A model generated the notes under the pieces. That model searched no databases. It worked only from the letters and a program-made list of their open reading frames with translations, and was not told the DNA's origin. A stretch of DNA of 64,000 nucleotides, from contig CBDEUM010000012.1 in assembly GCA_965242925.1 (NCBI GenBank), positions 32,001 to 96,000 of the forward strand. The letters are read 5' to 3'. Positions 17,198 to 60,069 of this stretch are shown here, piece after piece; position 1 is the stretch's first letter, and each line of letters starts with the position of its first letter. The position numbers and the translations under genes were made by a program. The DNA is from Roseibacillus sp. Its GTDB lineage: Bacteria > Verrucomicrobiota > Verrucomicrobiia > Verrucomicrobiales > Akkermansiaceae.

Positions 17198-20100
17198 ATG
17201 ACCCTGTCCAAGTCCACCCGAGAACCCCTCGCCCGGGGGAAGCCCAACCCCTCGCCCAATCCTGGCCCTGATTGTTCTGACACTGGCGATGCCGGGCTGT
17301 AAACCGACGCAACGCCCCAACCAGGATTCCATTGTGGGCAACGATGCCGCTCAAATTCGCGAGCTGGTAAGCGTGGAGGAACGGATCCTCGCCCTCACCC
17401 CACAACTCCGCGAGCTCTCGAAAAGCATGCAGAACCTGCGCCTCCCGGACGGCCCCCGGCTGATCCACTTTGCGTCCGAGGTGACCGTGCGGGAAGCAGG
17501 GCAGACTGCGGACACCTCCGCCCCCGGGGATCTCGACCTGCTGCGCCCCCTCCTCAAGGAGGTGGCCTGGATCGAGCAGGCTTCCTTTTACTTCATCGAT
17601 GGGAGGTTTCCGGACGAGGAGGAGGATCTCTTCGAGGGTGAAGTGGGATTCCGTGGACTGGCCAAATTGAAATCCGGCGGATGGCAGGGACTGATCGGCA
17701 AGTTTCTCATCAAGTGGACCAGGGGCACAGGCGAGGAGGGTGCGGAATGGAAGATCAGCGGCTGGGAACAAAAGGAACTAGTGACCATGGCGAGTGCGCG
17801 GCGTCTCTTTGGCGATGCGCTGGGCACCGCCTTGCCCCGCCCGGCCGACCGGGCCCTCGCACATCGCTCTCCCCACCAGGAGGCCGCCATCAAGTTCTAC
17901 CAGGGGGCGCGAAGAAACATCCGCATCCCTACTTCGCTCCGATCTCCGTCAATCAGAAGCCCGGTCTCGCGGTGGTGGACATCGATTCAGATGGCGACGA
18001 TGACATCTATGTCACGGTCCGGATCGGGCGCAACCTGCTCTTCGAGAACCAGGGCGACGGCACTTTCGTGGAAGCGGCGGAGAAGTATGGGATCCACTTC
18101 ACCGGGCACTTCACCTGTGCGCTCTTCGCGGACTTCGACAACGACGGCGATCCGGACCTCTTCGTGGGCCGTAGCTTGAAACCCAGCCTCTACTTCGAGA
18201 ACCGGGCGGGCCACTTTTATCCCGGCCCGCAGCAGAAAGAGTTCCCGATGACGGCGGTCTCGGCTTCCGCGGCAGACTACAATGGCGACGGCTTGCTCGA
18301 TTTGTACCTGCTGACCTACCGTCCGTCGACAATCGGCGGCAACTCAAGTCCCTCGGGCGGCTCGGGCGGGGTCGGAGCACAAACCGAACACTGGCCTGAT
18401 CACTTTTTTCCGCCCGGGATGGCCGCGGAGTATTACCGCCGTCACAGGGAAGCAAACTCGCGAAACGATCCCCAGTTCCCGAACCTCCTCAACCAGATCG
18501 GACCGCCGAACATTCTCTATGTGAACCGCGGCAAGGGGCGCTTTGAAATTGCGGAGGAGAGCACCCAGTTGGGGATCTGGAGAAACTCCCTGCAGGCCAC
18601 CTGGGCGGATTATGACGAGGATGGCGACCCGGATGTCTTCATCGCCAACGACTGGGCGCCCGACAACCTCTTCCGCAACGACGGAGAGTCCGGCTTCACC
18701 GACGTCACGAAGGAGGCCGGCCTCACCGAATTCGGGTTCGCGATGGGGGCTACCTGGGGCGACTACGACAACGATGGCCTGCAGGACCTCTACGTCTCCA
18801 ACATGTTCAGCAAGGCGGGTGCCCGCATCACGAACCGCGTCCCGGGAATCGCCGAGATCTACAAGCAGTCCGCGGCCGGTAATTATCTCTACCGTCAGCG
18901 GCCCAATCACACCTTCGAGCTTGTCTCGGGAGACAAGCCCCCTGCCCTCGCGGTCACCAAGGCAGGCTGGTCGTGGGGTGGCCAGTTCGCCGATTTTGAC
19001 AACGATGGCTTTCTCGATCTCTACGTGCTGAGCGGATACTTCACCGCGCCCGAGGCCGTCTCATCGGAGCTGGACTTGTGAAGTAACCTCTGGCGCACGG
19101 TCGTGCGCACCGACAGCAACCTCGCCCGGCGCAGCTTCCGCTTTTCCGAGGAATGGAGGCGCCGCACCGGGGATGCCCCGCTCACCCCGCAGATTGACCG
19201 ACGCCTGCAGGGAGGCCGGGAGGAAGACGGCCGCTATGTCGTCCATTCCCTGAGCGGAATGGAGCGCAACCACTTCTTCATGAACCGGGACGGAAAAAAA
19301 TTCTCCGATCTCTCGCTGATTTCCGGGATCGACAATCCGGCGGACAGCCGCGGATTCGTCCTGCTCGATTACGATCACGACGGCTGGCAGGACCTCGCCC
19401 TGGTGAACGCCAACGAACCGCTCTTCAACATCTACCGGAATCAGACGGGCGAGGCTGAAGGAAAGGCGGACCACCATGTCATTGCGATTCGCTTCGAGGG
19501 CGGAGCCCGAGGAGAGGCCAGCCCCAACGAGAACTACGCTTGCCGCGACGGATATGGCGCCTTGGTCACCGCCGACCTGGGTGACCTGACGATCAAGCGC
19601 GAACATCGCTGCGGAGAGGGCTTCAGCGTGCAGAACAGCCGCACCATGGTGATTGGGATCGGCTCACGCGAAATGGTTCCCTCCCTCACGGTTCGGTGGC
19701 CATCAGGCAAGACAACCACCCGGGAGAACGTGGCAGCCGGCACCCTTCTCATCGCCTACGAAAATCCCACCCACTCGGGCGCCAGCACGCAGTTCACGCT
19801 GAGCAACTACCACGATGTTGTGCCGCGGAAGCAGGCCCCCGTCCCTCTCACCAGCTTTCCGATCACGGAGCCCGACGCCACCGCACCCATTCGGGTCTAC
19901 ACCACGATGGCCACCTGGTGTGTGGCATGTCAGTCGCATCTCCCGCAGCTCCAGGCCCTGAAGAACGGACTGGGTGAAGGGGCCGCTCTCATCGGCATTC
20001 CGATCGACCCGGACGATAACGCCAAGATGCTCACCGAGTACGCCGAGGAGTGGAAGCCTGCCTATCGCATCCGCGCCGACCTGGAATCCGACGCGCGCGC

Positions 20101-20248
20101 CGCAGTGACAAGGTTTCTTGCCGAGCAATCCGGCGAAGAGGCCGCCCTGCCCTCCACCATCATCACGAACGCCGAAGGCAAAGTCCTCAAGGTGATGTCC
20201 GGCGTGCCGGATGTCTCCATGGTTCGCAAACTCGCGGCCGGTCCTTGA
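17198..20248 (+). CDS. Putative selenoprotein: FG-GAP/VCBS repeats + ASPIC/UnbV + redoxin (CVAC) lipoprotein; in-frame TGA at 19079-19081; frameshift at 17903-17907 and possibly near 17235-17240
   Basis: DxDxDGxxD repeats; ORFs 17681-19081 and 19103-20248 share a frame separated only by TGA; DSRG, GEGFSVQNS, VRWPSG (UnbV); ATWCVAC; lipobox-like LAMPGC at about 17280-17300; start uncertain. Confidence 0.75.
19079..19108 (+). promoter_or_regulatory. UGA plus SECIS-like hairpin
   Basis: TGA + 11 nt spacer + GCGCAC-GGTC-GTGCGC perfect 6 bp stem with GGUC loop. Confidence 0.75.
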
Positions 20249-29597: not shown

Positions 29598-30584
29598 CTA
29601 TTCCCCTGTCTTCCTGTCCTCCTGATCCTTGCTCCCCCCCGCCAGGTAGAGCTCTTGTATCCAGGCAATGGCTGCCGGCTGTATGATCTCGTGTCCTCCT
29701 TCAAAGATCGTCACCGTGGCGGTCGCTGACGAACGGCGGAAGATGGGTTGCTTCCCTCCGAAGGTCGGATCAGGGGCCGCCCTGGTGAGCGCATCAGGTA
29801 ACCGGGACTCCTTGGTCATGAACGCGATCTCCTTCAATCCAATCCGGTCCTTCTCTTCAGCCACTTCATTGAAGGCCAGCAACGAGTGGCTGATGGGCAC
29901 GCTCCCGTTGTGCCCATCAGTGATGCCCGTCGCAATATGCAGGCGCACTTTGCCCTTTGCGTTCCTGAGATAACTCACCGGCGAGCGCTTGCGATACTCC
30001 CCGTCCACCACCGGACTGTCCCCCGGTTTGCCACCGCAGGATTTCACGATATCGTCCGCATAACGCCGCCCACCCCTGATATTGTCGTGATACCAGGCTT
30101 TCAGATCAGAGATCGAGGCCCAGGCCGATATTCCGGCAAAGAGTTCCGGGTGCTTCCCGGCCATGACAAGACAATGATATCCTCCTCCCGAAGTCCCTAC
30201 CAGGAAGACCGCCTTGGCGTCAATCCGGGTGGTCTTCCTGGCATGAGCCACCGCGCTGACGATATCCCCGATCACCAGTTCCGAACCCGTGGCCTCGGGC
30301 CTCCTGGCCGGACCCCGGAAGTCGGGATGGATGTAGGCCCAGCCCTTCTTCATGCACCACTCACGAATGGGCTTGTGGTGCTGCTGCCGGTAACCCCCCG
30401 ACCAGGTGTGCAGGGCAACCACCAGCGGGACGGGTTTATCCGGCTTCGGATCATGGAACATGGCCCGCTGCCTGGTGTTGTCCGCGCCACTGAGATACTC
30501 GATATCCTGCAAGTCCACCGCGACGGCCGAACTGGACACCGCCAGCATGAACGCGGCGAAGACTGGTTGCATTCCCCTATTCAT
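29598..30584 (-). CDS. Secreted S9/alpha-beta hydrolase
   Basis: PLVVALHTWS, GTSGGG, FEGGHE; start uncertain. Confidence 0.8.
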   Translation of the reverse strand: MNRGMQPVFAAFMLAVSSSAVAVDLQDIEYLSGADNTRQRAMFHDPKPDKPVPLVVALHTWSGGYRQQHHKPIREWCMKKGWAYIHPDFRGPARRPEATGSELVIGDIVSAVAHARKTTRIDAKAVFLVGTSGGGYHCLVMAGKHPELFAGISAWASISDLKAWYHDNIRGGRRYADDIVKSCGGKPGDSPVVDGEYRKRSPVSYLRNAKGKVRLHIATGITDGHNGSVPISHSLLAFNEVAEEKDRIGLKEIAFMTKESRLPDALTRAAPDPTFGGKQPIFRRSSATATVTIFEGGHEIIQPAAIAWIQELYLAGGSKDQEDRKTGE

Positions 30585-31985
30585 TGCCCAAACCAACCCT
30601 TCCGGGTTCCTCCGTGCATGTGGAGTTTTCCGTCGGTACTCGCAATCATGAGTGCCACCATGGCGTTCCCAATCGGTTCCAGTCCGAGATACTGGTCCCC
30701 ACCGATATTACGTTTGCCTCCGAAATAACCCACCGAGCCGGCGGCATTCCGGCTGAGTTCGAGAAAAGGCCTCCATTTGCGCATGATCTCCGCGTGTCCT
30801 TCCGGGTGTGCGCTCCTGAGGCCCGCAAATCCATAGATCACGCCGATCGACGACATGGCATGGGCATGCCTCATCCGGCCGTGATGCATAACGAGGGCAT
30901 CCGCGAGACGACGGGCCAGTTTGGGTTCCTTGCCTGCCACCATGAGCGCGGACGCCATCGCACCGGTGCGGGCGGAAATATCGGGACTGCGCGGAGCCCG
31001 CGAGGAATAGCCCAGTGCTCCCGTCTTCTCGTCCAGCGACCCCTGCACTTCCTGGAAGGATTGATTCCACACCACCTGATCCACCTCGTATCCGCATTTC
31101 CCGGCCAGCGCCCAGGCCAGGTGGGCCTGCACATTGATGATGACCAGGCCACCTCCATTATAGGGAATGTCAAAATGATGCCCCATCCTGCCCTTGGTGG
31201 TTACCCGCGCGGCAAGGAGATCGCAGTTTGTCTTCAGTGCCTTGGCGAAAGACCTGTCACCGGTCGCCAGTTGATACTCGGCAAGGAGAATAGCGGTGCT
31301 GGCCGCCTGCCAGTTCTTGGGACCTGTGCGCGGATTCTTCAAATCAGCGGAGGCAGTGCTCTTCTGGTTGATGAACCCGATCGCGGCCTTGATAGCCGGG
31401 AAGGTATTTCCTGTCATCCGCCGCCAGCAGTGAGAGTGCACAGAAAGCGGACATGTAGACGTCAGCGTCACCTCCCACCCCCGGTTGCCAGCGCCCGTTC
31501 TCCTGCTGCGTGGCATGCAGATGATCGGCAATGCCGGCAAGCAGGCCCGCGCTTTTGAGCCCCGCCCTGGTCAGGCTCACTCCCAGCGAAACCAGTTCCT
31601 TCCCGCGGCGAACCTGCAGGGACAATGCAGGGGGGGCAGCTGCACAGGCCGCAACAAGTGCCAGGGCAAGGTCCGTCTGCGGCCCCTCCAACCCCGTCTC
31701 GGTGCTCTTGGAGAACGGCTTCGACCTGCGTCCCCCGGCTGAGACGATGCGGTCACCACCCAGCAGTCCGGCTTTCTCCCCGGGACCATCCTTGCCCACC
31801 TCCATGATGAAAATCTCGCGCTCTCCATCGGAAAGGCGCCCCGTCGCCGAGAGCACCCCCAACGGAAAATCGTGATGTTCCCCTCTCTTGCTGTTCTGCA
31901 GCTTGGGATGGTAGCGCGGGAAATTCGAATCTGCGGCGTGGGAAGACAGGGACGCAAACAGAAGTAGAACCAGCGGATATCTCAT
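30581..31985 (-). CDS. DUF6288-like secreted protein with PDZ-like N-terminus (frameshift near 31398)
   Basis: GPGEKAGL.GGD.I (PDZ-like); QQENGRW...SAFCALSLLA joins AIKAAIGF after removing one base; (alpha/alpha) toroid-like C-terminus. Confidence 0.6.
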
Positions 31986-32167
31986 GGAGTGCATTGATCC
32001 TGCTCAGATCCCGATGGTTCGTCAACGGTCCGGCAAATGGGCAACGCCTGCCCACACACAATCTCTCTTCCACACTCTCCCCCGACACCGTGATCACCCT
32101 CTGGCAAGCATCCCCACCCAGGCTGTCTGTGCTGGACACCAGGGCCTCAGGGCATACATTACCACAC

Positions 32168-32845
32168 ATGAAAACATACATTCTGGCAGCCATGGTACTG
32201 GCAGGCATCACCCAACTGAGCCTTGCAAACCTGAAAATCCCCCGTTCTGTCTATCAGGTTGAGGACATGGAGGAAGCCATGGCCACAGCCACCGAAAAGG
32301 AGAAGCCTCTCATCTTTGTCTTCACTGACCCGGGCACCACATGAGGATCTTGCCTGGCCGCCAGTTCGGAGGCCTTCAAGTCGTTTAAGTCTGTCGGCGT
32401 GGTTGTTTTTGCCAATTCGAGAACGGATTTCGGCAACCTTCCCGCTGGAGCCAGGGAAGTGCGCGCCAAGGGCGGCAACACCATTCCGATGGTGTTTGTC
32501 ACAACCGCTGACGGACGGAAGGGCATTGACGCGATCCCCTACACCTCTCTGAAAAACGACATGCGGAAATCCGTGCGCACCCTCCGGACCACCCTGGAAA
32601 ACGTCGATGTGCTGAATGGTGGCGCGGAAGCCGACCGCAAGACGACGGAAGATGATGCGACCTCTCCTGCCGCCGACCAGCCTGAGTTCACGGAATGGAA
32701 GAACACTGCCGGGCGCGTCATCGAGGCCGCCGCCAGGGAAGTGAAGGGCGGCAAAGTCCTCTTCCTCCTCCCGAACGGAAAGACGGTCTGGTACGATATC
32801 TCCAACCTTTCCAAGGCAAGCCGGAAGAAGCTCCCCGGGGAATAG
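32168..32845 (+). CDS. Putative selenoprotein: secreted thioredoxin-like protein with UxxC motif and C-terminal SHD1-like domain (TGA 32342-32344 = residue 59)
   Basis: EEAMATATEKEKPLIFVFTDPGTT-TGA-GSC reads in frame into ORF 32399-32845; IPMVFV cis-Pro-like motif; EWKNTAGRVIEA...ISNLS (SHD1-like). Confidence 0.85.
32342..32380 (+). promoter_or_regulatory. UGA plus SECIS-like hairpin
   Basis: TGA + 11 nt + GGCC-G-CC-AGTTC-GG-A-GGCC; lower stem CTTG(32349-52)/CAAG(32377-80). Confidence 0.7.
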
Positions 32846-32870
32846 AATTCCGGCAATTCGACAATTCCGG

Positions 32871-32904
32871 AACGCCGCGACCTTGTTCCAGGTCACGGCG
32901 TTTT
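32871..32904 (+). terminator. Rho-independent terminator
   Basis: AACGCCG-C-GACCT-TGTTCC-AGGTC-A-CGGCG-TTTT downstream of the TAG at 32845. Confidence 0.75.
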
Positions 32905-32943
32905 CGTTTCCATGAAGAACCGGCGGGATGCTCTGAACCGTCG

Positions 32944-34401
32944 CTACCGCGGGATCCTGACCAGGGTGTAGTAAGCCTCGGGATGCAGGAGCTTGGCACC
33001 GTCCCGGGCGATCAGATTGCTCATCACCAATTCGTGCACATACCCGGCCCGCATTCCGTCGAGGGTCAGGCGCACCGCCCTTCCCTCTTCCAGCACCTCG
33101 GCGGACTTGATGGCGACCGGTTGGGTGTCTGCCTCCGGCCCACCATAACGCGACTCCAGCTTGTAGGTGTAACTTTTCATAGCGTAGTTTTCCACCCTCC
33201 CGGCTGCCGCCATGTCCACCGGCTTGGTGAAAGTCAGGAGGAACCCGCCCTTCTGCACCTTCATGCTGTGAACCTCGAAGGGCAGCTTGCCCGTCCAGCG
33301 CAACCGCTGGAATCCCCAACCCTTGTTTCCCCGGCCTCCCCAGCCCGCATTCGACATCCCCACGAACATCGAGGCATCTTTACCGAAGGCCACGCGAATG
33401 ATTCCGCACTGGAACCCCTCACGAAACCGGAAGCATGCGCCCTGCCAGTGGCCTTCCACTTTTTCGAGAAACACCCGCATGACCCAGGCGTGGTGCTGAT
33501 CAGCCACAAAGAGCTGCCCCGCGAACGGACCAAACCCGCCCCCGGAGGTATCCCAGCACATCCCGCTCGGGCTCTTGCCCATCTTGTTGTAGGGAAACCA
33601 GACCGCCGGCATTTTCCACTGGGGGATCGTTTCATGAAGATCCTTCATGAAGGTCCCCGATTTGGGGCTGGGAATCTGATCGAAGGGGGATCCGGCCAGT
33701 TCCTTGCTCGGCAAGCCATGGGGATGTCCGTGAAATTCGCCCTTGGCGAGGTGCGATAGTTTGGAGGCGTTGCACCATTCACCCTGGTTGTCTGTGTAGA
33801 AGATCTCCCCATCGGGACTCGCTTCAACCCCGGCAGGTGAACGCAGGCCCGTGCACATGGGCTCCATCCTGCCCGTCCGGGGATCGATCCGAACGGCCCA
33901 CCCCCGCCAGTGAGCCCGTCCATAGGGCTGACCCCCGAAGGGCTTGTTGAGGGTAATCCACATCTTGCCGTCCTTGTCCATTCGTGGACCGAAATTGTAT
34001 TCATGATAGTTGCCGCTGATTTCCCAGTCGTCACAGACCGTGATGAACTCATCGGCTTTCCCGTCACCATCTGAATCCCGCATCCGGGTCAACTCGCCCC
34101 GCTGGGCGGTATAGACCCAGCCCTCGTGCTCCAGGAAGCCAAGGGGTTGAGCCAGCCCGCGTGCATATTTCCTGTAGGAAACCTTTTCCGGGTCATCCTC
34201 GTAGGCCCCCTCCGCGAAAAACACATCACCGGTGCGGGTTCCCAGCAGGATGCTCCCGTCCCCAAGTTTGGTCAGGGCACCTATTTCAAGTTTGAGCCCC
34301 CGGTCCGGGAAGGTGTCGATCCTGTAGAATTCATCCTCGGAATTCTGGGCTGCCGCCGAGAGACCGGCGACAGTGAAAAGGACAGGAAGAATGCGACGCA
34401 T
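32944..34401 (-). CDS. Secreted beta-propeller, glucose/sorbosone-dehydrogenase-like PVC protein
   Basis: ELTRMRDSDGDGKAD, GNYHEY, GLRSPAG, TDNQGEW, PFAGQLFV. Confidence 0.75.
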   Translation of the reverse strand: MRRILPVLFTVAGLSAAAQNSEDEFYRIDTFPDRGLKLEIGALTKLGDGSILLGTRTGDVFFAEGAYEDDPEKVSYRKYARGLAQPLGFLEHEGWVYTAQRGELTRMRDSDGDGKADEFITVCDDWEISGNYHEYNFGPRMDKDGKMWITLNKPFGGQPYGRAHWRGWAVRIDPRTGRMEPMCTGLRSPAGVEASPDGEIFYTDNQGEWCNASKLSHLAKGEFHGHPHGLPSKELAGSPFDQIPSPKSGTFMKDLHETIPQWKMPAVWFPYNKMGKSPSGMCWDTSGGGFGPFAGQLFVADQHHAWVMRVFLEKVEGHWQGACFRFREGFQCGIIRVAFGKDASMFVGMSNAGWGGRGNKGWGFQRLRWTGKLPFEVHSMKVQKGGFLLTFTKPVDMAAAGRVENYAMKSYTYKLESRYGGPEADTQPVAIKSAEVLEEGRAVRLTLDGMRAGYVHELVMSNLIARDGAKLLHPEAYYTLVRIPR

Positions 34402-34409
34402 CTGATGAG

Positions 34410-37208
34410 CTACCATTTGATCCGAATGTTGAATTCCAGTTGATCTCCCGGGGCCAGAGAGAGCGGCACCATCAGCTCAAGGCCTCCCGATCCCTCACGA
34501 ACAGAAGGTTGCATCTCCTGGTTCCCTTCAATCCAGAGCGAAACCTTCTTGTCAACAGCCCATGATCCATCGTCCCGCTTCTCAATCGCCTGCCCTGTCG
34601 CGGCTATGAACGTCAGGCCCTTTCGCGCGAAGTCCTTCCCGGCCCTGAGCTTGAAGTGGCGCTGCAGGACGGCTCCTCCTGGCTGGAGAACCGGTTTGGG
34701 CTGCTCCTGGATGAGGCAGCCTCCAAGCTGATACTGAAAGACCGGTTCGCCATTAGATGTCAGGCGGTAACCCTGGAACTCACCACCCACGTCCCGATCT
34801 GTCTTGCCCACGGAGGGCCAGGGAGCGGCGGGCGTTTCCAGGAAGGCAAAGGCGGGCCCCGCCGGGAAATTGTAGATATCCGTCCCCAGAGGGCTGAAAA
34901 ACTTGTCGCTGCGACCGCTTGCCACCCCGGAAGAATCAAAAAAACGTCCCCTCCAGGTCTTCGCCAAGCGGGTGACATTGGCATCAAATGCCACGTGAAC
35001 CCGCTCCGGGAAGCCCGCCACGATGGCCCGGGGCCCCACGTCGGTCATGAAAGTACGGTGCACGATAGGCTCGAGGAGAGGCTTGAGTTCACTTCCTGTT
35101 CCCCCTTCTTCAGCTATTCCAGGCGGGGGAGGCATGGATTTACCGAGGGAGAGGTAGTTCCAGATTCCCTCAACCTGCCTGTTGGTATCGCCCCCTGCGA
35201 TTTTCTTGAAGGAGGCCACTCCACCAGGCCAGAACGCCGGCATGCGGGTGTCCCTGTTGAAAGCCTGAGGATTGTGAAGAAAACGGACGAACCAGCCCGG
35301 GGTGAGCCGCTGCTGCATTTCCGCAAGGTCAATGCCGGGAATTCCCACCGCCTGACGTCCTCCCACATTATGACAGGTGATACAGACGAGCCCACCCGTG
35401 CCAACCAGGGCCTGTCCGTCGCGGGCTGATCCATAGTTGAATTCAACAGCCCTGGCGTCATCAGGCCGGGCGTCGGCTTCAAGAAAGGCCGCCACCAGCG
35501 GCTCCAGGTTCTCCTTGCCGAAACCCGGCATGCGGGTGGACATGAATCGTCCCCGCACATGCATCTCACCGTGATAGAGGATTCGTTCCAGTGCTTCCTT
35601 GCGGAACTTGGATCCGGCCGTATCCAGGTTGGGGGGGATTTTCCCCTCCTCCCCCAGATCAATCTCCATCTTGGTTCCGAAGAACCCGCGACGCGAGTCA
35701 TCAGGTCCTCCCTGCCCCCCCCTCTGGTGGCAGGCATAACAGTTGAAGGAGGCCAGATGCTTCTGCACAATCTGCCCGGCCGTTAAAGGCTCCCGCCGCT
35801 CTTCCCTGAGTGCCAGAGCCTCCTTCAGCGCCGACCGCTGGACTTGCGAAAGATTGTAGTCTGGCGCGTTCGCCGGCACGTTCTCCGAAAGACAGCCCCG
35901 GTCAGGGACGAGATCCGCGAAAGGGTTTGCGCCTGGAGACGACTCCCGCCCGGGCAGAGAATGGCATGAAGCACAACCGCGGTTGACGAAAATCTTCGCC
36001 CCTCCTGCCACCTTTTGCTGATCGATCACCATGGTCTCGTGCCCAACCGGAGACATCGGATTCCCCCGCGGCAGGAAGAGGTTCCAGGAGGGAATACGTT
36101 GCTTGGGGACATCCGGCCCCTGCCATCCCACCCCAAAAATCGCACTATCCGTTTTTTGGAAGTAGCGCACGTCCAACTCGTGTTCACCCGCCTTCAGTTC
36201 CACCGAACCCGACACCTCCTTCCGGGTATGCACCCCATCACTGTCCACCACCGGCTCCCCATTAAGGAGCACCTGTGAGCCGTCATCCGAAACCGTGAAG
36301 AATGTCCACTTCCCGTCTTTCGGAACCTTGAGGATCGCACGCCAACGCATTGCGAAATCCTGGCGCCGCTTCTGGAAGCCCATGTTGAAGGTGATGGTTC
36401 CATGCGTTCCACTCTTCGTGGCCGTGAGTGTCTCGAAGTCAGGCAATCTGTCTCCCAGAGGCGCCTCGAAATACTCCCACCGCACACCCGGCTCCGCCTT
36501 GGTCTTTAACCCGGATTGATTCTTCAACTGGTCCCGAAGGAGATACACTGCCAGGGCATGCGCTTCATTCTCCGACAGCCACAACCTGGGCATGCGCCCG
36601 GACCTGCGAATCTTGAGAGGATCGAGAAGAAAGGCCGTCAAATGATCCACCGTGGTCTTCGCGGCCAGTTCCCCGAGAGGGATTGCCGAAGCCCCGGGAC
36701 CCTCTATCGGCATCTCCGGTTCGTGACAGGAAACACAGCCCACCGAGTGATACAAATCGCGGCCGCGCTCCACCAGACGCGCACTGCCACCACGCCCGGA
36801 GGATTGGATCCCACCCCCCTGCGATACCAGAAAATGCACCAGCGACTCGACTTCTGCCTGCCGGTCCCCGGCCGCTGTGCCATGAAAGAGGTCCGGCATG
36901 GTCGTGCCCGGCTTCACTTCGTGATTCTCCGAAAGAAACCTGCGCAGATAACCGGGAGTTACCCTGGCCCCGACGGCGGAGAGATCCGGCGCCCTCTTGG
37001 TCGCAACCACCGGAGTGTCCCCCTGCTGCTCGTGGCAGGAGAGACAGTTGAGTTCACCCAGGAGAAGTTCCCCTGCGGCGGCCTTTCCTTCCGGATCACC
37101 GTGCAGCAGATCAAAGGCGGGAACCACCGGTTCCCCGGAAATCAATCCGTGGCTGAGAACAGGAAAAACCGCAAACAGCAACAAGCGAGAAGGACCGCCT
37201 AAACTCAC
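34410..37208 (-). CDS. Multiheme c-type cytochrome with PA14 domain
   Basis: Five CxxCH motifs (CLSCH, CVSCH, CASCH, CYACH, CITCH); FFTVSDDGS PA14 motif; start uncertain. Confidence 0.85.
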   Translation of the reverse strand: MSLGGPSRLLLFAVFPVLSHGLISGEPVVPAFDLLHGDPEGKAAAGELLLGELNCLSCHEQQGDTPVVATKRAPDLSAVGARVTPGYLRRFLSENHEVKPGTTMPDLFHGTAAGDRQAEVESLVHFLVSQGGGIQSSGRGGSARLVERGRDLYHSVGCVSCHEPEMPIEGPGASAIPLGELAAKTTVDHLTAFLLDPLKIRRSGRMPRLWLSENEAHALAVYLLRDQLKNQSGLKTKAEPGVRWEYFEAPLGDRLPDFETLTATKSGTHGTITFNMGFQKRRQDFAMRWRAILKVPKDGKWTFFTVSDDGSQVLLNGEPVVDSDGVHTRKEVSGSVELKAGEHELDVRYFQKTDSAIFGVGWQGPDVPKQRIPSWNLFLPRGNPMSPVGHETMVIDQQKVAGGAKIFVNRGCASCHSLPGRESSPGANPFADLVPDRGCLSENVPANAPDYNLSQVQRSALKEALALREERREPLTAGQIVQKHLASFNCYACHQRGGQGGPDDSRRGFFGTKMEIDLGEEGKIPPNLDTAGSKFRKEALERILYHGEMHVRGRFMSTRMPGFGKENLEPLVAAFLEADARPDDARAVEFNYGSARDGQALVGTGGLVCITCHNVGGRQAVGIPGIDLAEMQQRLTPGWFVRFLHNPQAFNRDTRMPAFWPGGVASFKKIAGGDTNRQVEGIWNYLSLGKSMPPPPGIAEEGGTGSELKPLLEPIVHRTFMTDVGPRAIVAGFPERVHVAFDANVTRLAKTWRGRFFDSSGVASGRSDKFFSPLGTDIYNFPAGPAFAFLETPAAPWPSVGKTDRDVGGEFQGYRLTSNGEPVFQYQLGGCLIQEQPKPVLQPGGAVLQRHFKLRAGKDFARKGLTFIAATGQAIEKRDDGSWAVDKKVSLWIEGNQEMQPSVREGSGGLELMVPLSLAPGDQLEFNIRIKW

Positions 37209-37350
37209 CCCCCGACTATGAGAAGCCGAACCATGGAGCGGCAAGCCGAATTGCACGATCCATCCCGGAAGACAGGGTGGTGAAGGTGGAACTACGCACT
37301 CCTCCCCGATCTCGCTCACCGTTAAGTGAGCGTCCGCCACGGGATTTGCT

Positions 37351-55865: not shown

Positions 55866-56013
55866 GTGACCCGCTATAAGAAGAAAAACAGAGAATTCCG
55901 CGTCCGCCCCTCCGGTCTCCTTCCCAGAAATTGTCCGGACCACGTCACGTTTCGACACTCCGTTCCCGCTCTTGCTGGCCCCATCGCGTCTGCTACGGTT
56001 TTGTTCTGGAACA

Positions 56014-59000
56014 ATGAAACGCACGGTCACCACCCGCCTCTCGTGCACGCACGGCCTGGGACTCCTCCTCGGCCTGGCGATCCTGTTCAGCGCCTGCAAC
56101 GAGAACGGTGGCAACTCCGGGAACGAACCTGCTCCTCCAGCGCGCCAACCGCCCCAACCGGACAAGGGCGCCGCACAAGCTCCTCCCTCTTCTTCGGACG
56201 CCACCCCCAACCCCGTGATTCCTCCCAGCCCCGCCGTGAAGGCTGGCCCCGCGGAAACGGCTCCCGGCCTGGGCCAGGGGAACCTCATTGCTCCTCTCCG
56301 CGATGCCTACGAACGGATGGATCCGGGCAAGGACGGCTGGGCCTCCGAGGCATTCAGCGCCTCGGCCAGCGAACAGTTGCACCTTCTCGAAGACCTCCTC
56401 GGAGGCCCCGATGACATCACGGCTGCCTCCCTGGGAGAACTAGCGGTGGCGGAGGTATCGACCACCGCCCTGCGGCCAGAGAACCTGTCACTCACTTTCG
56501 ACGACGGCCGCTTCCTCGTCCGGCGTCCCCCTGCCTTGCCGGGCCATAATACACCCGGGATCGCAGCCCTCTCCGCCACCCTGAACAAGCTGCGCCCCGA
56601 GGAGGGCTCCATCGATCCCCACATGAAAATCTTCCGCGTTTTCCCCGGGGAAAAAGGCACGGCCAAATGCCTGGTGCTGGTGGACATCCTCAACCATAGC
56701 GGGCAGTCGCGAACCCAGATCAATGCGACCTGGTCCTGCAACTGGAGGCTTTCCCCCGACCAGTCCCCGCTCCTGACCTCGATCGCGCTCACCAGATACG
56801 AGGAAATCACGCAATCCGTCGACTCCCGGCCCCTTTTCGCCGATGCCACCCGGACCCTCCTCGACCGGGAGGATGCATATCACAAACAGTTCCTCCATTC
56901 CTCGGACCACTGGCGGGCCCACCTGCCCCGCGAACTGGGACTCGACCCGGTGGCCAATCATGGCCTTGCCATTGGCGACATCAACGGTGACGGCCTCGAC
57001 GATCTCTATGTATGCCAGCAGGGGGGCCTTCCCAACCGGATGTTCCTCCAGAATCCAGACGGCACCCTGCGCGACATCACCCGGACCAGTGGTGCCGGAT
57101 GGCTTGAATACTGTGCTGCAGCGCTCCTCGTCGATCTCGACAATGACGGCGACCGTGACCTGATCGTTTCACAGGACTTTCGGGTGATGGTCATGGCCAA
57201 TGATGGCAACGGGGCCTTCACCCTTGCCTTCGGTTCCTCCACCAAGGCCCAGTCATTCTCACTGGCAGCTGCCGACTATGACAACGACGGCCTCGTCGAT
57301 TTCTACATCTGCGGATACAACCCGTCCCAGTCCAAACTGCGGGGCGGAGCGATGGGAGAGCCCATGCCTTTTCACGATGCCAACAACGGCGGACCCAACA
57401 TGCTGTGGCGCAACGAGGGCAACCTGGGATTCAAGGACGTCACCGGAGTCACCGGCATGAACGCAAACAACACCCGCTACTCCTTTGCCGCCTCGTGGGA
57501 AGACTACGACAACGACGGTGACCAGGACCTTTACGTTGCCAATGACTATGGTCGAAACTGCCTTTACCGCAACGACGGTGGTTCCTTCTCTGAAATTGCA
57601 GCCGGGCTGCACCTTGAGGACACCTCTTCCGGCATGTCGGTGAGCTGGGCCGACTTCAACCTCGATGGCCAGATGGACGTCTACACCAGCAACATGTTCT
57701 CCAGTGCCGGAAACCGCATTACCTACCAGAAACAGTTCAAGTCCGACCTGCCCGAGGACGTTCGGAAACAATTCCAGCATCTTGCAATCGGGAACTCCTT
57801 GTTTGAGGGCGTTGCCAATAAGCCCTTCAAGGACGTGGGGATCGGAGCCGGGGTCAACATGGGCCGCTGGGCCTGGGGCTCAAAGTTCGTCGATTTCAAC
57901 AACGACGGCCGGGACGATATCCTGGTCGCCAATGGCTTCATCACCACTGCGGACACCGGCGACTTGTGAAGTGTCTACTGGCGGCAGGTCGTGTCGCAAT
58001 CCCCCGTCGATGATTTCTCCGAACCCGCCATCGCCTCCTACAAGCAGGGATGGCGGGCGCTGAGCCGTCTCCTGCACGAGGACCGCAGCTTCAGCGGCAA
58101 CGAACGCCACTGCGCCTTCCTCAACACCGGTAGCGAAGAGGCGAGCTTTGCGGATGTATCAGCTCTCACCGGATTCGGTTTTTCTGACGATGGTCGCGGC
58201 CTTGCCACGGTCGACTGGGACTTTGACGGGGATCTCGACGTCTGGATGACAAACCGCAACGCCCCTCGGGTGCGTTTTCTCACCAATCACACGCCGCCCG
58301 GCCAGAAGTTCATTGCCATTAAGCTCCGCGGGAACGGCAGGACCTGCAACCGTGACGCCATCGGGGCGCGCCTGGAGCTAACCCTCGAAGGGGTGGCACC
58401 AGCCACCCGCATCCGCACCCTGCGCTGCGGGGAGGGCTTCCTCTCCCAGTCCAGCAACTGGGTTCACTTCGGCATCGGTAAAGCCACCGGAATCACCAGC
58501 CTGGTAGTCAAATGGCCTGCCGGACCGGCCGAGAGCTTCACCGGCCTGCAGGCGGGTACATTCTGCCTCATCCAGCAGGGCACCGGGGCGTCTCGCCTCT
58601 TCTCCCCACCAGAACAGCGCGTTGTCTTGACTCCGCGGGAACAGACTCCCCTTCCTCCCACCGGAAACACACGTACCATCGCTCCCGCAGGACTTCCCCT
58701 GCCCCGGCTGGAAGTGATCGGGGAAAACGGGGAACTGCAACCTTACGCCCCCGACGGAAAACGTCCCCTCGCCATCAATATCTGGTCAAGTATCTGCGCA
58801 GCATGTGTGGCCGAACTATCCGAGTGGTCAGAGCACCGTGACGATTTGGCAGGAGCGGGCCTCGACGTGCTCACGCTCAGTACCGACCACCTCGATGGCG
58901 CGGCTCCACCGGAAGCGACGCGGGCCGCCCTTGCCAGGACCAGTTCCCCCTTCCCCAACCTGTCCATCTCGGAAGCCGCCCTCAAGGGTCTCGACTTCCT

Positions 59001-60069
59001 GCAGCGCTCCGTCCTCGATCGCAGGACCCCCCTCCCCGTTCCGAGCACTTTCCTGATCAACACCGACGGGGAACTGGTGGCCTTCTATCGGGGGCCGGTT
59101 GCCGTCAACCAGCTCCTCCAGGATCTGCGCCTGACGGGAACAGAGCAGCCCCCTGATGCCCGACGCAATGCCGCCATCCCCTTCCCCGGGCGCTGGATCG
59201 GCAAGGCCGTCCCGGGACGACCCAATCGCGTCGCTTCGATCATGGCTGACCACGATGAAGTCGAACTCGGGGCTGCCTACCTGGAACACTGTGCTTCCCT
59301 CCTCGAATCAAAAGCAGATGATCCAGACAGCAGACGCAATCTCGGTGATATCTACTACGTCGCCGGACTGCTGAACGGACTCAAGTCCGATCGCCGCGAA
59401 CTCGCCATCGAGCAACTCTCCCGCGCTCGTGAGCTGATGCCGCAGGACGTTCGCATCCGTTTGGAACTGGGGCGTCAATTCTTCCTGGCGGGACAATTGC
59501 ACAACGCCGAGCAGGAGATGGGCAAGGCTGCCGAGATCAACCCCGGTGACCTGGCACTGCTCATGGATCTCGGGTTGATGCGTTTTCGCCTGGGAGAATA
59601 CGAGAAATCACATGAGGTTTACAGGAACGTCATCCGGGCCACGCCCCGCAACGGTCTGGCCCGCTATCACCTGGCCAATAATGAAGTCCGGCTCAGGCGA
59701 TTGCCAGAAGCCATCGAAAACTATCGCAGGGCTCTTGCTCGTATTCCGGATCTCACCGAGGCCGCCAACAACCTGGCATGGATCCTCGCCAGTCATCCCA
59801 ATGAGAATCTTCGATCCCCGGAAGAAGCGCTCACCATCACCACCCGCCTCTGCCAACAAACCCGGGAGCGATCCCCGCTCTATCTGGACACCCATTCGAT
59901 CGCCCTGGCCAATCTCGGGAGGTTCCAGGATGCCATCGCGACCGCCAACAAGGCGATTGCGCTCATCCCTCCACGGAACGCGTCCGCGATCGATGGCATC
60001 CGCGGACGCATCTCCCTCTACGCCGCCAGCAAGCCCTACCGTGAACGTGGATGGAAAATGGAAGATTGA
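56014..60069 (+). CDS. Putative selenoprotein: FG-GAP/VCBS repeats + ASPIC/UnbV + redoxin (CAAC) + TPR lipoprotein, about 1351 aa with TGA 57967-57969 read through
   Basis: Lipobox LFSAC; FG-GAP repeats; ORFs 55972-57969 and 57991-60069 share a frame; DGRG, DAIGA, GEGFLSQSS, VKWP; WSSICAAC; TPRs with NNLAWILA. Confidence 0.82.
57967..57997 (+). promoter_or_regulatory. UGA plus SECIS-like hairpin
   Basis: TGA + 11 nt + GCGGCA-GGTCG-TGTCGC (6 bp including one G-U). Confidence 0.75.

Follow-up and report, generated by a model that had tools for sequence, protein, structure and literature searches.

The stretch of DNA analysed here (the window) comprises 64,000 nucleotides of a Roseibacillus sp. 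genome, positions 32,001 to 96,000 of contig CBDEUM010000012.1 in assembly GCA_965242925.1. At its positions 32168..32845, on the forward strand (+), it carries a gene with an in-frame TGA that very probably encodes a 225-residue exported selenoprotein, most likely a periplasmic thiol-disulfide oxidoreductase with a UxxC active site, where U stands for selenocysteine (Sec). We are highly confident that Sec is decoded at codon 59 of this gene, referred to below as the U59 gene, whereas the oxidoreductase function is held with lower confidence. All elements of the gene described below lie on the same strand, and their coordinates are those of the window.

The coding sequence is a single frame of 225 codons, one of them the Sec codon, which begins with the ATG at 32168, is interrupted solely by the TGA (codon 59, 32342-32344) and, as read from the sequence, closes with the stop codon TAG at 32843-32845. 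In the list of open reading frames (ORFs) generated with translation table 11 the frame is divided into 31994..32344 and 32399..32845. Residues 1-20 (32168..32227) form a predicted signal peptide of the Sec (secretion) type, the N-terminus MKTYILAAMVLAGITQLSLA consisting of MK, a hydrophobic core and a terminal SLA. A signal-peptide-like pattern, variable in sequence, is found in all 13 orthologues and in the full-length homologues, which suggests Sec-dependent export. Downstream of the signal peptide EEAMATATEKEKPLIFVFTDPGTT is followed by the TGA and then by GSC, whereas TIPMVFV occupies residues 105-111. The initial annotation of this locus, made from the sequence alone, had proposed a secreted thioredoxin-like selenoprotein on the strength of such motifs (EKPLIFVFTDPGTT, TGA and GSC, in that order) and of an ORF track that splits the gene in two; all of them are present at the positions it gave.

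The TGA, read here as U59, the first position of a U-G-S-C redox motif, has evidently been treated as a stop in the databases. Public gene calls found for the gene and its relatives are all either cut at the TGA or read W there, so that a family of exported redox proteins is mis-sized. When 5.8 billion proteins were searched by a word index, 75 relatives were retrieved. Their coverage of the query is just 20-72%, the TGA column lies outside every one of them and most start just past it, which is the pattern that gene callers yield when they stop at a Sec codon. When species-representative genomes were searched, 13 loci were returned, from which one Bacteroidota locus was dropped because the match extended over 19 residues only. 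The 12 full-length loci, from Akkermansiaceae, Roseibacillus and Oceaniferula metagenome-assembled genomes (MAGs), all have TGA at the same column, and a profile scan added four further genome records with TGA, bringing the count to 16 of 16 orthologous genome records. An ATG is located exactly 58 codons upstream of the TGA in each of 13 sequences (window counted). The TGA is likewise present, without exception (32/32), in metagenomic loci that were retrieved by a profile built from more distant fragments. Within the genus of the window the gene is present in 11 of 20 genomes (E <= 1e-20), each time with exactly one internal TGA. Identity to the window goes down to about 54% among the aligned genome orthologues, and the metagenome loci include more divergent members.

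On the two sides of the TGA, in codons 21-58 as well as in codons 60-145, the proportion of nonsynonymous differences (pN) is ~0.2 and that of synonymous differences (pS) 0.5-0.9. Since pN is low on either side, a sign of purifying selection, and the synonymous sites are near saturation, both halves must be translated in one frame, and these comparisons exclude a chance or degenerative stop at codon 59. It is therefore hard to sustain the view that the TGA is a true stop which either separates two small genes, for an exported peptide of 58 residues and a protein of 148, or marks a pseudogene. Public gene calls do treat the codon in this way, the 75 relatives are all partial, and five N-terminal fragments retrieved in the profile search described below end exactly at column 58. 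However, about 60 loci would not all retain a nonsense mutation at one column amid saturating synonymous sites, there is no conserved start past the TGA (database calls begin at varied columns, from 63 to 110), Cys-form homologues are single continuous proteins, and the predicted thioredoxin fold needs both halves, with helix 31-43 and strand 48-53 encoded before the TGA. We consider a true stop extremely improbable.

In order to find out what more distant homologues carry at the TGA column, a profile of 13 full-length sequences was compared with 1.84 billion cluster representatives, yielding 523 proteins at E <= 0.001. Sixty sequences were taken from the best 150 of these; 55 span the TGA column and the other five are the N-terminal fragments mentioned above (P0131, P0150, P0161, P0181 and P0204). 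In the alignment of 48 of the 55 homologues the column holds C in 41, W in three, N in two, A in one and D in one, and the second redox position is C in 36. The remaining seven, longer forms with two SHD1-like domains, were kept outside the alignment; by eye, all of them have Cys at the column. When 401 genomes sampled from across the phylum were searched in six frames, 41 had matches, with an internal stop in the window's own genome only; ORFs from the other genomes have Cys at the column in 18 of 23 cases, the five most distant ones having K or Q. Loss of the Cys is thus confined to a minority (5/23 genome ORFs and 4/48 aligned rows, with three further rows reading W). The initial annotation had called for CxxC homologues in other Verrucomicrobia and had regarded orthologues without Cys at the TGA column as fatal to its proposal; the close relatives have TGA there and most of the distant ones have Cys.

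One of the three W forms could be traced to DNA: in P0102 (locus L078) the W is a TGA, giving U-G-L-C. A scan for the locus of P0077 found unrelated SHD1-bearing genes only, and the W of P0077 and of P0132 comes from gene calls alone. In a FastTree tree the Sec orthologues group with P0077 (W) and P0081 (C) with a support of 87, while P0102 and P0132 are placed among the Cys forms. This quick tree, a weak method, suggests that the family has switched between Sec and Cys on more than one occasion.

Downstream of the TGA, at 32356..32374, lies a hairpin resembling a selenocysteine insertion sequence (SECIS), GGCC-g-CC-AGUUC-GG-a-GGCC, which corresponds to bases 15-33 counted from the U of the UGA. 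Its stem sets in 11 nt past the UGA and consists of 4+2 bp around a 1x1 internal loop; the spacing from the UGA to the loop is 18 nt, G23 and U24 fall within the 5-nt loop AGUUC, and the 25-nt hairpin piece folds with -10.4 kcal/mol. Bacterial SECIS elements (bSECIS), in the constraints quoted in PMC13188914, have a loop of 3-9 nt and a stem of 4-16 bp, a G in the first two loop positions with G or U usually coming next, 16-37 nt from the UGA to the loop, and an MFE (minimum free energy) no higher than -7.5 kcal/mol. The hairpin falls within every limit quoted there.

The strongest evidence for the hairpin is evolutionary and comes from frozen synonymous sites in the aligned sequences. Among the 13 orthologues, third positions are invariant in six of the eight codons 63-70 and in none elsewhere (0/56 in codons 1-58, 0/38 in codons 71-110 and 0/39 in codons 111-150). 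Ser66 is always encoded by AGU, and the amino-acid changes that do occur (A/T/V65, S/L67 and E/A68) affect unpaired or wobble-tolerant bases. When 29 distinct sequences were compared, 91.4% of 174 cells were paired, a value that dropped to 10-63% when the partner was slid by 1-3 columns. Two pairs show compensatory changes, with one instance of G-C replaced by A-U and two of C-G replaced by U-A.

The genome encodes machinery for Sec decoding. It contains selB (287.5 bits, above the curated cut-off), a tRNA-Sec with the anticodon tca, and a selD that itself carries TGA at the catalytic CAG-U-ASK position. The conserved TGA, the Cys in most distant homologues, the SECIS-like hairpin and this machinery together bear out the selenoprotein assignment made in the initial annotation. 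Reading of the UGA without Sec, either by a near-cognate Trp or Cys tRNA or through lineage-wide reassignment of UGA, was also considered and appears very improbable. In its favour, three database homologues are printed with W at the column, and UGA-to-Trp reassignment has been reported in some Verrucomicrobiota (PMC13462651). In this genome, however, TGA is the commonest terminator of long frames, ending 1858 of 3461 (38 of 64 in the window), which means that UGA has not been reassigned. Moreover, each orthologue has exactly one internal TGA, the homologues have Cys rather than Trp at the column, the sole W that was tested is a TGA in the DNA, and selB, the Sec-containing selD and tRNA-Sec are all kept. 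Code reassignment, a pseudogene and two separate genes were accordingly rejected as readings of the locus: TGA is the commonest stop, the TGA column is kept, and there is constraint on either side of it.

A crude scan of the genome for in-frame TGA codons followed by hairpins with GU-containing loops gave 195 candidates, mostly noise, to which Pfam models were then applied. Eight other in-frame-TGA genes with such loops belong to recognised Pfam families: a formate-dehydrogenase-type molybdopterin oxidoreductase (loop GGUCU), a ThiF/MoeB protein, a CMD/AhpD-like C-Y-Y-U protein (GAGUUC), two Thioredoxin_8 proteins with W-U-G-P-C and W-U-G-G-C (AGUUA and AGUUG), a MiaB-like radical-SAM enzyme, an FG-GAP/DsbD_N protein (AGUUU) and an FG-GAP/UnbV_ASPIC/AhpC-TSA protein (GGUCG). 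Four of the loops are of the AGUUN type, and the AGUUC loop of the U59 gene fits this repertoire of the organism itself. With at least nine in-frame-TGA genes in recognised families, the genome is selenium-rich.

We then turned to the structure predicted for the read-through product. AlphaFold, run with 58 sequences and with U59 modelled as Cys (model m5cba39e31ef2), gave a mean pLDDT of 90.6 and a pTM of 0.69. Residues about 24-146 (32237..32605), in blocks of pLDDT 93-98, are predicted to adopt the thioredoxin topology, beta-alpha-beta-alpha-beta-beta-alpha: the model runs from helix 31-43 and strand 48-53, both upstream of the TGA, through helix 60-75, strand 78-83, helix 93-102 and strands 108-112 and 119-123 to the helices at 125-143. 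U59 is placed immediately before helix 60-75 (helix 1), the position at which the initial annotation had located the CxxC of thioredoxin-fold proteins; a structure prediction devoid of this fold, which it had named as grounds for dismissal, was not obtained. Alignment position and model both put Pro107 (codon 32486..32488), in T-I-P-M, at the site of the thioredoxin-fold cis-proline. It is the sole invariant column, kept in 58 of 58 alignment rows, and lies just before strand 108-112 (strand 3) in the model, in agreement with the cis-Pro-like role that had been suggested for the IPMV segment. The putative resolving cysteine C62 (TGC, 32351..32353) is invariant in the 13 orthologues and, as stated above, is matched by Cys in three quarters of the aligned distant homologues (36/48). 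The redox tetrapeptide is U-G-P-C in 10 of the 13 orthologues and U-G-S-C in the window and its two closest relatives. U-G-P-C is the selenium version of the classical thioredoxin C-G-P-C pattern.

Comparisons of the model with solved structures lead to the same fold. The best Foldseek match is the Xylella disulfide isomerase 3fk8 (E 3e-4, TM 0.63 on target), with Chlamydia DsbH 2ju5 (E 3.4e-4) and thioredoxins among the further top matches. In VIA-align against representatives the highest Z was 10.3 and 34 chains reached Z >= 8, with model residues about 23-147 aligned. Among the matches listed by either program, all are thioredoxins, thioredoxin-type domains or chains containing a thioredoxin fusion.

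The thioredoxin-fold domain is followed by an acidic low-complexity linker (residues 147-170, 32606..32677), variable in length and sequence in the orthologues and modelled with a pLDDT of 52-53, and then by a C-terminal SHD1-like beta domain (residues 171-222, 32678..32833). The tail is modelled as four strands and a short helix with a pLDDT of 83-96, making up a confident small beta domain at 175-220. Its designation comes from homologues that match Pfam SHD1 (PF03983): 20 of the 58 family members do so, with a best E of 3.7e-8, as do three of 16 Sec-form tails, most of the SHD1 matches inspected falling below the 23.7-bit cut-off. A sequence search of the PDB with a profile of the tail returned no solved SHD1 and chance-level matches only, and in fold searches with the whole protein the matches were filled by the thioredoxin domain. 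The initial annotation had described the protein as fused to an SHD1-like domain; this is borne out only in part, by some family members but not by a match of the window's own copy, and 'SHD1-like' is a fair label by transitive homology, as judged from these profile matches, not a demonstrated match.

The same two modules occur elsewhere. A second selenoprotein in the same genome (locus L112:1054-1794; G000:C22, TGA 23539, +) has them in reversed order: its SHD1-like domain is N-terminal (the tail profile aligns to it in hhalign with 95.7% probability and E 9e-9) and precedes a Thioredoxin_8 domain with W-U-G-G-C, and the hairpin has an AGUUG loop. Four further loci (L119-L122, at about 1000-1612) from freshwater MAGs of Akkermansiaceae and Verrucomicrobiota encode exported proteins with an SHD1-like domain followed by a thioredoxin-like domain with W-C-P-Y-C. 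Judged by these domain assignments, the pairing of SHD1-like and thioredoxin-fold domains recurs in either order and in both Sec and Cys forms.

The following course of events may be proposed for the U59 protein. SelB with Sec-tRNA(Sec) would recognise the hairpin with the AGUUC loop and insert Sec at UGA codon 59, so that translation would not terminate. Removal of the signal peptide would leave a mature protein made up of the thioredoxin-fold domain, the flexible acidic linker and the SHD1-like beta domain; its active site, U59-G-S-C62, would sit where helix 1 begins and face the conserved I-P107 loop. A substrate disulfide (or sulfenic acid) would come under attack from the U59 selenolate, C62 would resolve the mixed selenenylsulfide, and the oxidised U-C pair could be re-reduced via a membrane conduit such as the genome's DsbD-type protein, a single DsbD_TM gene having been found at another locus. 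A binding or targeting module may be provided by the SHD1-like domain. In this scheme export, the redox direction, the electron donor and the part played by the tail are proposals.

A genuine thioredoxin-fold selenoprotein could also perform a job other than disulfide exchange, for instance that of a peroxidase-like scavenger, of a protein that senses or carries selenium, sulfur or metal, or of a redox-dependent adaptor whose main role resides in the SHD1-like tail. The monocistronic gene and its loosely kept neighbourhood (described below) are compatible with such a role, as are the missing second Cys in 12 of 48 aligned rows, the K or Q at the first position of the five divergent genome ORFs, and same-family ORFs of a small-genome genus that keep the first Cys only (TTCP-LA). 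Most orthologues, on the other hand, have U-G-P-C, both redox positions are invariant in all 13, and the best structural matches are the disulfide isomerase 3fk8, DsbH 2ju5, thioredoxins and the DsbD C-terminal domain. A function of this other kind is thus unlikely, and a thiol-disulfide oxidoreductase is the preferred assignment.

Several results weigh against the assignment of the U59 gene as a selenoprotein gene with these two domains. As regards the hairpin, true compensatory changes are few (three cells), the stem pair 18-30 is unpaired in 13 of the 29 sequences, and an Rfam scan of 32250-32500 found no SECIS family, returning three chance-level matches to eukaryotic RNAs. The 79 nt past the TGA fold no more stably than shuffled sequences (z = -0.14; 80 of 200 shuffles as good), and folding stability alone is therefore no evidence for the element. 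As regards the machinery, selA was not found in the genome with two models; given an assembly completeness of 89.87% and the occurrence of selA in 11 of 12 genomes of the same genus, its absence may be an assembly gap. With respect to the protein, AlphaFold yielded a poor model (pLDDT 59.1) when it was supplied with 13 close sequences only, and against PF13899 (Thioredoxin_7) the U59 protein scores 11.9 bits (E 0.25, residues 33-64 only) with a cut-off of 27, the best homologue seen reaching 26.6 bits, just below that cut-off. The window's own tail, finally, has no SHD1 match even at E <= 10.

The U59 gene stands alone between convergent and divergent neighbours. A candidate sigma-70-like promoter, TGGACA, 16 nt, TACATT, is located at 32133..32160; it is a consensus match only (9/12 positions), which is weak evidence, and the sole promoter-like site in 31900-33000, where shuffled sequences have a mean of 0.4 sites. 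Downstream of the gene, at about 32869..32910, a terminator-like hairpin is followed by the U-rich tail UUUUCGUUU; its fold has z = -2.87, equalled by one of 200 shuffles, and a simple terminator scan did not list it. The initial annotation had put the terminator after 32845 rather than after the TGA, and this hairpin does lie past 32845. An S9 peptidase gene and a PDZ-DUF6288 gene recur as neighbours in six of 12 loci, in changed order. Because the neighbourhood is only loosely kept, genomic context says little about function, and an operon-based assignment was rejected in view of the gene's own promoter-like site, its own terminator-like hairpin and this loose conservation.

In the window the PDZ ORF (31344..31994) overlaps the DUF6288 ORF (30581..31540) in a different frame at about 31390-31402 (-). 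At the orthologous loci L019 and L021 PDZ-DUF6288 is one continuous ORF (...DDRKYLPAIKAAIGF...), so the arrangement in the window can be ascribed to a one-base frameshift, which may be an assembly error or mark a pseudogene. On the other side of the U59 gene, a protein of 976 residues that combines several cytochrome c domains with PA14 (34410-37340, -) directly abuts a DUF7133/SGL-like gene (32944-34416, -); no link between this pair and the U59 gene was seen.

Other in-frame TGA codons of the genome were also noted. In the MiaB-like methylthiotransferase (locus L116; G000:C13, TGA 118163, -), which has UPF0004 and Radical_SAM domains, the TGA replaces the first Cys of TYG-C-QMN, a would-be cluster ligand, and is followed by a 7-bp hairpin with the loop AGGUU. 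The window itself contains two large genes, at 55972-60069 (+, TGA 57967) and 17681-20248 (+, TGA 19079), with the motif ...DL-U-S..W(R)..V, a hairpin loop GGUCG or GGUC, FG-GAP-like repeats and, at the C-terminus, a TlpA-like CxxC domain. The DL-U-S motif recurs in about ten paralogues across the genome, and one of them (L118) matches FG-GAP_3, UnbV_ASPIC and AhpC-TSA; these genes probably constitute a multi-copy selenoprotein family. An identical 41-residue stretch around an in-frame TGA, with an identical hairpin, is shared by G000:C12:51079 and G000:C17:49805, which may reflect a duplicated region or redundancy of the assembly.

The U59 family adds one family to the marine bacterial selenoproteome, provides what appears to be a natural Sec/Cys series of one periplasmic thioredoxin-fold enzyme, and ties the bacterial SHD1-like module, which is poorly understood, to the redox chemistry of the envelope. 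It introduces no new principle, since the commonest class described so far is that of UxxC thioredoxin-fold selenoproteins. A bolder possibility, which we put forward only tentatively and regard as somewhat doubtful, is that the gene is the founding example of an uncatalogued marine Verrucomicrobiota selenoprotein family in which a periplasmic selenium reductase is coupled to an SHD1-like peptide-binding module. If that were true, the recurrence of the two modules would hint at lineage-specific 'addressed' envelope redox enzymes in the Planctomycetes-Verrucomicrobia-Chlamydiae (PVC) bacteria.

Comparison with described families sets these results in context. The tail, predicted as a small beta domain, has its nearest described counterpart in SLA1 homology domain 1 (PF03983), which, as noted, the C-terminal domains of some homologues match. 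In yeast, SHD1 binds NPFxD endocytic signals; we know of no such ligand for bacterial SHD1. The thioredoxin-fold domain has its closest counterparts in the Thioredoxin_7/DsbH/DsbD C-terminal-domain type (3fk8, 2ju5 and 4ip1), which likewise appears as an exported small thioredoxin fold with a helix before strand 1, the redox motif where helix 1 begins and a conserved Pro loop. VIA-align matches the U59 protein to 2ju5 with Z 8.9, and six of the 58 family members match PF13899 at E <= 0.01. Unlike proteins of this type, the U59 protein has Sec in place of the first Cys and an extra SHD1-like tail. Other Pfam and NCBIfam matches of the read-through protein were sub-threshold (DUF2767, E 0.2; NF052402, E 0.091), and none of the NCBIfam models, selenoprotein models included, matched the 13 orthologues at E <= 0.05.

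Among known selenoproteins, the UGSC family (NF041046) shares the literal U-G-S-C and is thought to have a Trx-like fold, as stated in PMC2398784. However, 10 of the 13 orthologues of the U59 protein carry U-G-P-C, NF041046 matched neither the U59 protein nor the 13 orthologues at E <= 1, and it matched nothing else in the genome. GOS_C/Omp28_seleno (NF045500) similarly matches neither the U59 protein nor anything else in the genome. The family was not found described in the literature, although the supplementary lists of BSepDB (PMC13326102) and of the GOS paper could hold it; the 2026 review PMC13188914 does not mention Verrucomicrobia, SHD1 or PF13899 in its main text. The family may already be listed under the survey classes Trx-like 2/3 (CDD models cd02953 and cd02950).

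The closest parallel in chemistry and habitat is offered by Sec thioredoxins and the GOS Trx-like families 1-3, which, according to PMC13188914 and PMC2398784, combine UxxC in a thioredoxin fold with a marine setting, as the U59 family does; the U59 protein differs from Sec thioredoxins in having no PF00085 match. In UxxC thioredoxin-fold groups, as in the U59 family, Cys forms far outnumber Sec forms (same sources). UxxC thioredoxin-fold selenoproteins are the largest bacterial selenoprotein class and, according to PMC2398784, the commonest kind in marine bacteria, and marine surveys list several 'Trx-like' families (PMC2398784, Table 2; PMC13188914, Table 1). The U59 gene is a real, well-supported and unannotated selenoprotein gene that probably represents a new family of this well-known kind.

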